Shown: piece by piece, positions 6,761-7,130 of the stretch
How positions within the stretch are numbered: the stretch's first letter is position 1
Layout of the letters: each line of letters begins with the position of its first letter
NCBI RefSeq assembly: GCF_024223415.1
Contig: NZ_CP100500.1
DNA: 64,000 nt
Direction: 5' to 3' (one strand)
DNA from: Escherichia coli
GTDB taxonomy: Bacteria > Pseudomonadota > Gammaproteobacteria > Enterobacterales > Enterobacteriaceae
Notes under the pieces: generated by a model
What the model was told of the DNA's origin: nothing
The model's database searches: none
Seen by the model: only the letters and a program-made list of their open reading frames with translations
Translations under genes and position numbers: made by a program

Positions 6761-6878
6761 AAAAACGAGAATAATTATCACTTACAGCAAGAATCGAATC
6801 TGATCTATTCTGATGCTTGCTATTATGTGCCGGCACAAGTGCGTCGTTTACCGTCATTTCACACAGAGGCATCATCAA

Positions 6879-7130
6879 ATGAAAATCAGAAATATTCTCG
6901 CTATCTCCCTTGCAACATCATCCTTCAGTTGCCTGGCATTTAAACCCTCGCCCAATGTGCTACCAGGACCAACGAATCAACTAACTGCGGTAGAAAGTAA
7001 AATTATCGGACATTTTTATGCCCCACACAGTGCATTACCCGGAACAACCATCACAGGGACATGTGACGCCTCCCCCATTCCGGGATGCACCTGTCCGTTT
7101 TGTACTATGCTGCGTAGCCAAAACCGATAA
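6879..7130 (+). CDS. Hypothetical small secreted Cys-containing protein (83 aa, predicted signal peptide)
   Basis: ATG at 6879 with AGAGG upstream; N-terminus MKIRNILAISLATSSFSCLA is signal-peptide-like; C-terminus TGTCDASPIPGCTCPFCT has 4 Cys; no homolog recognised. Confidence 0.35.
   Translation: MKIRNILAISLATSSFSCLAFKPSPNVLPGPTNQLTAVESKIIGHFYAPHSALPGTTITGTCDASPIPGCTCPFCTMLRSQNR

Follow-up and report, generated by a model that had tools for sequence, protein, structure and literature searches.

The window analysed here, 64,000 nucleotides (nt) of Escherichia coli contig NZ_CP100500.1 (assembly GCF_024223415.1), contains beside the cosQ site of a lambdoid prophage a plus-strand open reading frame (ORF) of 83 amino acids (aa). 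This ORF is a genuine protein-coding gene. By sequence similarity it belongs to an uncharacterised family of the Enterobacterales, the chromosomal members of which belong, as judged from operator sequence and gene neighbourhood, to the zinc-starvation (Zur) response. Our preferred reading, to which we give a probability of roughly 45%, is that it is an accessory gene ('moron') of the prophage encoding a Sec-exported protein that handles metal in the envelope through its cysteines, that it stems from a zinc-starvation family, and that it is possibly coupled to Fur. A metal-starvation accessory protein carried by a phage is more likely than a toxin. The gene and its parts are the following:

6879-7130, plus strand: coding sequence of the 83-aa precursor including the stop codon, defined by the ORF list, purifying selection and the limits of homology
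6865-6869, plus strand: Shine-Dalgarno-like AGAGG, 9 nt before the ATG
6879-6938, plus strand: predicted signal peptide, residues 1-20, with putative signal peptidase I cleavage between CLA and FK
7056-7118, plus strand: conserved motif GTCxAxPVPGCxCPFCTMLRS, residues 60-80, defined by alignments

The initial annotation had described an ORF with an ATG at 6879, the N-terminus MKIRNILAISLATSSFSCLA and the C-terminal TGTCDASPIPGCTCPFCT, and these are all exact. In its longest form, the ORF runs from 6813 to 7130 (105 aa), and the internal ATG at 6879 yields the 83-aa product. In the family alignments, conservation begins at the Met encoded at 6879 and the extension upstream of this position is not conserved; therefore, we take 6879 to be the true start. 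The first block common to the phage, Citrobacter and Salmonella copies is [AG]AGG..AATCATCA[AG]ATG, and in a DNA alignment of six unrelated contexts the similarity extends only from the ribosome-binding site to the stop codon. The stretch had also been called visibly AT-rich; it is so only mildly (GC fraction 0.42-0.47 versus about 0.50 in the flanks), and 'visibly' was an overstatement.

The coding status of the ORF was assessed with a codon alignment of six alleles, in which the window allele was compared with five diverged ones from other E. coli phages, Salmonella and Citrobacter using the Nei-Gojobori method (NG86). The proportion of synonymous differences between the window and the other alleles (pS) was 0.75-0.83, i.e., synonymous sites are saturated, and that of nonsynonymous differences (pN) was 0.17-0.23. 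Where the synonymous rate (dS) was measurable, the ratio of nonsynonymous to synonymous rates (dN/dS) was 0.10-0.28, which indicates purifying selection. About 50 of the 83 third codon positions differed, and about 10 of the 83 second positions. Moreover, the length is kept at 79-86 aa across 26 members from different genera that are 30-70% identical, and a scan of positions 6300-7900 against Rfam did not reveal an RNA family to explain the conservation. The records of phage 21 (OL657228) and of RefSeq/PGAP annotate only minus-strand ORFs here, which implies that the 83-codon frame is a chance ORF antisense to real minus-strand genes. This is refuted by the codon-position pattern and the dN/dS values, and the conserved length, the bounds of homology at the ribosome-binding site and the stop codon, and the lack of an Rfam match also argue against it, so that its probability is practically negligible. 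In the rare alleles P0003 and P0006, residues 55-66 are read in the +1 frame with loss of C62, and the frame is restored before PGCTCPFC; this double frameshift is either decay or a sequencing error.

No homologue had been recognised in the initial annotation. A protein search gave 13 relatives, among them equally long proteins of Salmonella and Citrobacter koseri that are 58-76% identical to that of the window. When 1.8 billion representative proteins were searched with a profile, 30 hits were obtained, about 25 of them 79-86 aa long; at 50% identity, the family comprises about 25 clusters and extends across the Enterobacterales. Its hosts are E. coli, Salmonella (houtenae and diarizonae), Klebsiella, Enterobacter, C. 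koseri, Kosakonia, Phytobacter, Serratia and Pantoea, and all members are named 'hypothetical protein'. A profile scan of genome contigs with a 7-sequence alignment gave 7 loci. Pfam contained no match at E≤1 for the window protein and no relevant match for the 26 members; scans of the 83-aa ORF and the 26 members against NCBIfam and PHROGs gave no match, and a sequence profile search of the PDB returned 0 matches at E≤10. AlphaFold2 models reached a predicted local distance difference test score (pLDDT) of 40 with 8 sequences and of 58.7 with 31 mature sequences; in the low-confidence model, a helix spans mature residues 12-26 and another begins at CPFC. Comparison of the model with pLDDT 58.7 to the PDB with Foldseek yielded only noise at E of about 10. 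In the literature searched, we found no description of a Zur-regulated small Cys-rich secreted protein or of the phage 21 slot, nor expression data on any family member. A survey of enterobacterial intergenic small ORFs gives its range as 15-70 codons, and an 83-codon gene falls outside that range (PMC11188072).

The family proteins share the features of a secreted precursor. A signal peptide of 19-22 residues was predicted for 26 of the 26 members, all of which have an n-region charge of +1 to +3 and a best 10-residue Kyte-Doolittle mean of 1.7-2.9. At the predicted cleavage site, position -3 is C, A, V or S, and Ala at -1 and Phe at +1 (A20 and F21) are invariant throughout. The window protein, which reads S-F-S-C-L-A, contains no lipobox (L-[AS]-[GA]-C), arguing against a lipoprotein; most family members have no Cys within the signal peptide. 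We infer that the protein is exported by Sec and cleaved after Ala20, so that the mature form would begin with FKPSPN. The mature part has four Cys and no more in every member (C62, C70, C72 and C75), with the spacing C-x7-C-x-C-x2-C. The signal-peptide-like N-terminus and Cys cluster noted earlier are features of the whole family. The majority residue has a mean frequency of 0.77 in the Cys motif, which is the best conserved part, 0.61 in the signal, and 0.39 in both the N-terminal mature part and the linker; a central helix (ES-IL--FYSQH) is moderately conserved (0.54). Two further hits (P0034 and P0036) are long, low-complexity, eukaryotic-looking proteins with a ubiquitin-like N-terminus and 4-5 repeats of PxPGCNCPKCTxLRN, which nearly equal the C-terminal motif of the family, PVPGCNCPFCTMLRS, and over which no Pfam domain was found.

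This conservation profile (0.61, 0.39, 0.39, 0.77) resembles a pre-pro-mature layout, and size and layout recall precursors of the STa type. Once the signal peptide is removed, the variable N-terminal half might then be clipped to release outside the cell a Cys-rich peptide of about 24 residues, GTCDASPIPGCTCPFCTMLRSQNR, with a role in metal scavenging or signalling. The invariant Phe at +1 and the central helix argue instead for a functional N-terminal part, and there is neither a conserved processing site nor a dedicated exporter or protease conserved nearby, so we consider this improbable. Still less credit goes to the analogy with peptide toxins drawn in the initial annotation. On a reading of this kind, the product would be a secreted toxin acting on host cells, a lysogenic conversion factor similar to the heat-stable enterotoxins. 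The protein is indeed small, with a Sec signal and a C-terminal Cys cluster, and the gene is found in prophages of extraintestinal pathogenic (ExPEC), avian pathogenic (APEC) and adherent-invasive (AIEC) E. coli and on Klebsiella plasmids. However, no enterotoxin or other Pfam match was obtained in the 26 members, and in Kosakonia, Phytobacter, Serratia plymuthica and Pantoea, known mainly as plant- and soil-associated bacteria, the homologues are chromosomal genes under putative Zur control. The Cys spacing of STa, guanylin and EAST1 is unlike C-x7-C-x-C-x2-C. A toxin is therefore very improbable.

The Zur boxes were identified as follows. We counted 23 exact copies of the core, GTTATNNNATAAC, in 248 kb of fetched locus sequence, as against 0.23 expected from shuffles. 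All 23 sites are located upstream of the family gene (at 45-110 nt), of the pliG gene that precedes the Salmonella member, or of an adjacent cobW. Most of the chromosomal members examined have the exact core upstream, and two have a near match. The extended sites of the chromosomal relatives share 15-19 of 22 positions with the published Zur consensus, GAAATGTTATA-N-TATAACATTTC, as cited in PMC4219657; the best is GAAATGTTATTTTATAACACTTA (19/22), and background pieces of 650 nt never exceed 14. The boxes persist in differing surroundings: in Kosakonia and Phytobacter the neighbour is pagP, in an Enterobacter it is a GGDEF-EAL gene, and in C. koseri it is icd. The C. koseri homologue (L003, 5001-5300) adjoins icd with no other phage genes near, and a perfect GTTATTACATAAC box precedes its ATG by 46 nt; this copy may be a domesticated remnant in which Zur control was either retained or newly gained.

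The neighbouring genes of several members are themselves related to zinc. In metagenomic contigs, a COG0523/CobW GTPase is encoded directly upstream of a member 87% identical to those of Kosakonia and Phytobacter. In Enterobacter, Klebsiella and Phytobacter massiliensis, the genes for AztD (PDB 6CMK, E 1e-279), a ZnuA-type AztC and ABC components lie alongside (for AztD biology, see PMC6689063). In addition, a 61%-identical copy is present on 64 Klebsiella-type plasmid records, mostly typed as conjugative. In the record that we opened, an IncF conjugative plasmid of K. pneumoniae (NZ_CP047635.1, 43099-55347, L032), the DNA upstream of the copy is a decayed cosN/cosQ, and hence the plasmid copy is phage-derived. 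It is located 0.7 kb from folE2, a COG0523/cobW GTPase gene and the gene of a 150-aa Fur-family repressor, and insertion sequence (IS) elements come after it. The folE2-cobW-repressor unit looks like a zinc-starvation module with its own regulator, and the plasmid setting is a fourth, independent juxtaposition of the family gene with zinc-starvation genes.

In Salmonella, the gene preceding the family member encodes PliG (PDB 4DY3/4DY5, E 1e-57), for which the Pfam label is only 'PPC'. A perfect TGTTATAGTATAACA box is present about 45 nt before the start of pliG, the family gene begins 94 nt downstream of pliG, and bor and omptin genes are located downstream of the family gene. In E. coli, regulation of pliG by Zur has been established by experiment (PMC4219657). 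In Salmonella enterica subsp. diarizonae, the block of Zur box, pliG, family gene, bor homologue and omptin gene forms an islet (L010/L029, 4450-7200) that adjoins a SPATE autotransporter gene. PDB entry 4DY5 names the PliG homologue 'Gifsy-1 prophage protein', which suggests a prophage origin of the diarizonae block.

The Salmonella arrangement, in which the family gene follows pliG behind a single perfect Zur box and is itself followed by bor and omptin, favours a different activity, namely that of a disulfide-stabilised periplasmic defence protein, an inhibitor or decoy directed at a host enzyme in the way that PliG inhibits g-type lysozyme, for which metal starvation is only a signal of the host. 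The four Cys would then form two disulfides via DsbA, and no metal would be bound. The same idea is in keeping with pagP as the upstream neighbour in Kosakonia and Phytobacter, with a TonB_C lipoprotein gene and bor/iss as neighbours in phage 21 and APEC O1, and with the general tendency of the periplasm to favour disulfides; pliG itself shows that a non-metal protein can be Zur-regulated (PMC4219657). On the other hand, the protein has no similarity to known inhibitor families, and in three other contexts the gene is directly adjacent to cobW, aztD and folE2-cobW modules. As weak evidence, PGCxCPxCxxLR recurs in the long, cytosolic-looking, eukaryotic-looking proteins mentioned above, where disulfides are unlikely. 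A defence protein is thus possible but doubtful; it is the main rival to metal handling, and the pro-peptide, the toxin, a phage-exclusion factor (see below) and a non-gene are progressively less likely.

The Zur operator appears, from the sequence, to have been lost in the phage lineage. No Zur box was found in the copies of the window, phage 21, two other types of E. coli phage (loci L007 and L012) and the Klebsiella plasmid (12-14/22). The sole exact match to the Zur core in the window (26289-26301) is located at the integrase stop/attachment region by ompW and is unrelated to the gene. Upstream of the gene, the following candidate signals are present:

6766-6780: Fur-box-like palindrome cGAgAATAATTATCA, matching 13/15 of the Fur 7-1-7 consensus TGATAATNATTATCA
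6782-6787 and 6806-6811, plus strand: candidate promoter read from the sequence, with -35 TTACAG, an 18-nt spacer and -10 TATTCT
6818-6826, plus strand: alternative candidate promoter, likewise read from the sequence, with extended -10 TGcTATTAT

The distance from the palindrome to cosQ is 9 nt and that to the ATG downstream about 100 nt; the palindrome abuts the candidate -35, which aligns with TTGCAA/TTGCAT of L007/L012. Homologous palindromes match the consensus at 15/15 positions in L007, lambda (48452-48466) and Qin of E. coli K-12, at 14/15 in L012, and at 13/15 in the window and phage 21. The Qin site, known as the 'nohA' Fur site, was isolated when genomic fragments were selected with Fur in vivo, and it is gel-shifted by Fur (PMC2189734). 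The palindrome heads a leftward accessory slot, of which the 83-aa gene is the first gene where present; in L007 and L012, it is followed by genes of the same families as the divergent K-12 genes ynfO (DUF3950) and ydfO (DUF1398). Lambda, Qin (L031) and other lambdoid phages all conserve the nohA palindrome, at 5-9 nt from cosQ; the Nu1 homologue is 233 bp away. The nohA Fur site may regulate the divergent slot (ynfO-ydfO in K-12) and not the Nu1 homologue, and Fur possibly controls the 83-aa gene in the prophage.

Combining these data, we propose the following. The 83-aa gene, which lies on the other strand than the late operon, would be expressed from start signals of its own, and its product would be exported by Sec and cut after Ala20, giving a protein of about 63 residues in the periplasm or the medium. 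The functional part would be the C-terminal C-x7-C-x-C-x2-C motif, which leads into a short helix, and the four cysteines would handle zinc or another thiophilic metal in the envelope when the host withholds metals. Since the phage copy lies behind a palindrome that binds Fur in K-12 Qin, its expression in the lysogen may follow iron starvation. Both transcription from the prophage and metal binding by the protein are predictions. Metal handling in the envelope is the likeliest activity because the chromosomal members appear to be part of the Zur response, and the cobW, aztD and folE2 neighbourhoods also favour it.

Several observations weigh against this proposal. With respect to regulation, the best 23-mer of the window copy matches the Zur consensus at 12/22, which equals background (mean 12.2, maximum 14). 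By chance, 0.26 matches to the Fur consensus at the 13/15 level would be expected in 64 kb, and the window contains two others, so that the palindrome is near chance level. It is also kept in lambda, which has no 83-aa gene; therefore, its conservation need not concern this gene. Neither candidate promoter was called by a consensus promoter scan. With respect to the protein, the number of His varies from 0 to 4 per family member and is not conserved, and the metal site is unreadable from a model with a pLDDT of only 58.7. Periplasmic Cys usually form disulfides instead of binding zinc, and the periplasmic zinc proteins ZinT, ZnuA and AztD use His, Asp and Glu. Finally, several neighbours (pliG, bor, omptin and pagP) suggest a function in the defence of the envelope and not in the uptake of metal.

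Positions 4000-9500 of the window comprise the late region of a lambdoid prophage of the phage 21 type (Jouyvirus), in which the late genes are encoded on the minus strand. Besides the 83-aa gene, it contains:

9451-8918, minus strand: lysozyme gene of the late region
8936-8454, minus strand: Rz/Rz1 genes of the late region
7821-7495, possibly from 7875, minus strand: gene of a TonB_C-domain lipoprotein (lipobox LSALAVGC; Pfam TonB_C, E 4e-13)
7378-7404: 12-bp hairpin between the plus-strand unit and the convergent TonB_C gene, a possible bidirectional terminator
7192-7372, plus strand: 59-aa ORF (phrog_4843) with Shine-Dalgarno sequence AAGGA, a possible second gene of the plus-strand unit
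6751-6757: cosQ, AGGACCC, identified from the sequence and by comparison with lambda as the reverse complement of lambda GGGTCCT
about 6716-6727: cosN region
6503-5994, minus strand: Nu1 gene of the late region
6079-4094, minus strand: large terminase gene of the late region

The 83-aa gene is encoded on the plus strand, antisense to the late operon, in the interval that separates cosQ from the TonB_C gene; its ATG is about 120 nt from cosQ. In five phage loci, it lies about 370 bp from Nu1 on the opposite strand, and the outer neighbour varies (TonB_C, DUF3950 or DUF1398). The gene is thus present or absent at one map position among related phages, as is characteristic of a moron: it is present in phage 21, Perceval and ev017, and is absent from the cosQ-proximal position of lambda and K-12 Qin. 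This bears out the earlier proposal that it occupies a moron slot, a variable slot between cos and the lysis/bor region that runs against the late operon, and the gene is an accessory gene of the phage-21-like prophage. The PHROGs label for the family of the TonB_C lipoprotein, 'Rz-like spanin', looks wrong.

With its position among envelope-directed accessory genes and opposite to late transcription, the gene might instead serve the phage, encoding a periplasmic protein for superinfection exclusion or receptor masking that works with the TonB_C lipoprotein, the gene of which is expressed in lysogens (PMC9928086). However, in many chromosomes the family gene is found behind Zur boxes without any phage context, and the variable outer neighbour means that there is no fixed partner. 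We regard this role as quite improbable. In the AIEC strain LF82, a lysogen of Perceval, the 'TonB fragment' gene of this prophage, which adjoins the copy of the 83-aa ORF, was transcribed 8-fold above the prophage background, and extra Perceval morons were, according to the authors, induced in Dulbecco's modified Eagle medium (DMEM) (PMC9928086). The 83-aa ORF is outside the genes scored in that study because it is unannotated in Perceval, which carries a 96%-identical copy at 49747-49995 on the minus strand of OV696612.

The 290-bp stretch downstream of the gene co-occurs with it, being present in the same number of genomes (1222), and a search of E. coli genomes for diverged copies of this stretch gave only copies at least 95% identical. 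In the window, a 1-nt insertion (289 versus 290 bp), shared by few other genomes, leaves a 48-aa remnant (7226-7372) of the 59-aa ORF; the 59-aa frame is displayed by the read-through of P0015. An antisense minus-strand ORF (7105-7311, phrog_3744) is usually annotated in place of the 59-aa ORF. A hairpin followed by a T-run had been reported downstream of the 83-aa gene. The hairpin at 7378-7404 is real, with folding energies of -16.4 kcal/mol (z -2.3) on the plus strand and -20.8 kcal/mol (z -4.15) on the minus strand, but its tail is UUCUUCC, without a T-run, and it was not called by a terminator scan. Another plus-strand ORF separates it from the 83-aa gene.

Elsewhere in the window, a gene for a tyrosine integrase (25167-26297) has its end next to ompW, which is on the minus strand (26343-26981). 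The integrase stop carries the palindrome GTTATTTGATAAC, and three GTTTTGCAGA repeats come after it. This junction is presumably the prophage end and attachment site. If the attachment site is at the integrase end, the phage-21-like prophage presumably integrated beside ompW instead of icd, the attachment gene of phage 21 (and e14).

At a threshold of at least 95% identity, the allele is present in 1222 of the 5426 complete E. coli genomes (22.5%), usually in one copy. Seven phage records contain the gene, namely those of 21, ev017 (two records), Perceval, PhiR47_2, PhiR57_1 and PhiR63_2, and prophage carriers include sequence type 131 (ST131), APEC O1 and AIEC LF82. In the five records that we opened (phage 21, B771, APEC O1, ST131 strain 2822 and PhiR47_2), the 83-aa ORF is unannotated. 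The records of phage 21 and the three RefSeq genomes (B771, APEC O1 and 2822) contain short minus-strand ORFs that overlap or just pass its 3' end, and PhiR47_2 has only short plus-strand coding sequences, none of which matches it.

Because reference annotations miss the gene, it is ignored in transcriptomic, transposon-sequencing and proteomic analyses. Its relatives are a compact and readily testable candidate for the enterobacterial zinc-starvation response, of which few members are known in E. coli K-12. Should the phage copy be responsive to limiting iron or zinc, the gene would represent a prophage-supplied countermeasure to nutritional immunity, and its horizontal capture would have been accompanied by regulatory rewiring from Zur to Fur. 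A bolder version, which we consider unlikely, is that the family is a new class of small periplasmic proteins for thiol-based zinc capture or transfer, which belong to the Zur regulon and one lineage of which was captured by lambdoid phages and IncF plasmids, the phage copy having been rewired from Zur to a Fur operator beside cos. If so, lysogens, including common ExPEC, APEC and AIEC lineages, would gain under host-imposed metal starvation, and the 'nohA' Fur site would serve as operator for the divergent moron slot and not for the terminase gene.

Compared with known systems, the family shares predicted Zur control with the chaperones ZinT and AztD and the COG0523/CobW GTPases, and the family gene adjoins aztD-aztC or cobW in several genomes and plasmids. 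Unlike these proteins, which show no homology to it, the family protein is much smaller and has four Cys and no His-rich site, and zinc binding is only proposed. Like PliG, it is a small, periplasmic protein (Sec-exported by prediction) encoded behind a Zur box, and in Salmonella the two genes are adjacent and apparently under one Zur-controlled promoter. PliG, however, is a protein of 133 aa without sequence similarity to the family. The PliG fold is not known to contain a Cys4 motif. With the heat-stable enterotoxins STa, STb and EAST1 the family has in common a short Sec-dependent precursor, a Cys-rich C-terminal part and an occurrence on mobile elements; it differs from them in Cys number and spacing, in the lack of a Pfam match and of a conserved pro-peptide cleavage, and in having homologues in non-pathogens. 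The genetic organization is similar to that of the Bor/Iss-type morons of lambda, with patchy presence in the variable slot between lysis genes and cos, an orientation against late transcription and an envelope-targeted (here predicted) product; in phage 21 and APEC O1 the 83-aa gene even neighbours bor/iss. Unlike Bor, the 83-aa protein is no lipoprotein and has no sequence relation to it, its chromosomal relatives are under putative Zur boxes, and its promoter and terminator are candidates only. Finally, among the nohA/nohB Fur sites of K-12 Qin and DLP12, the Qin site, which is identical to lambda 48452-48466, is the positional homologue of the window palindrome. In the window and in phage 21, however, the left arm of the palindrome contains two mismatches, and the Qin site has been attributed to nohA and not to the divergent slot.

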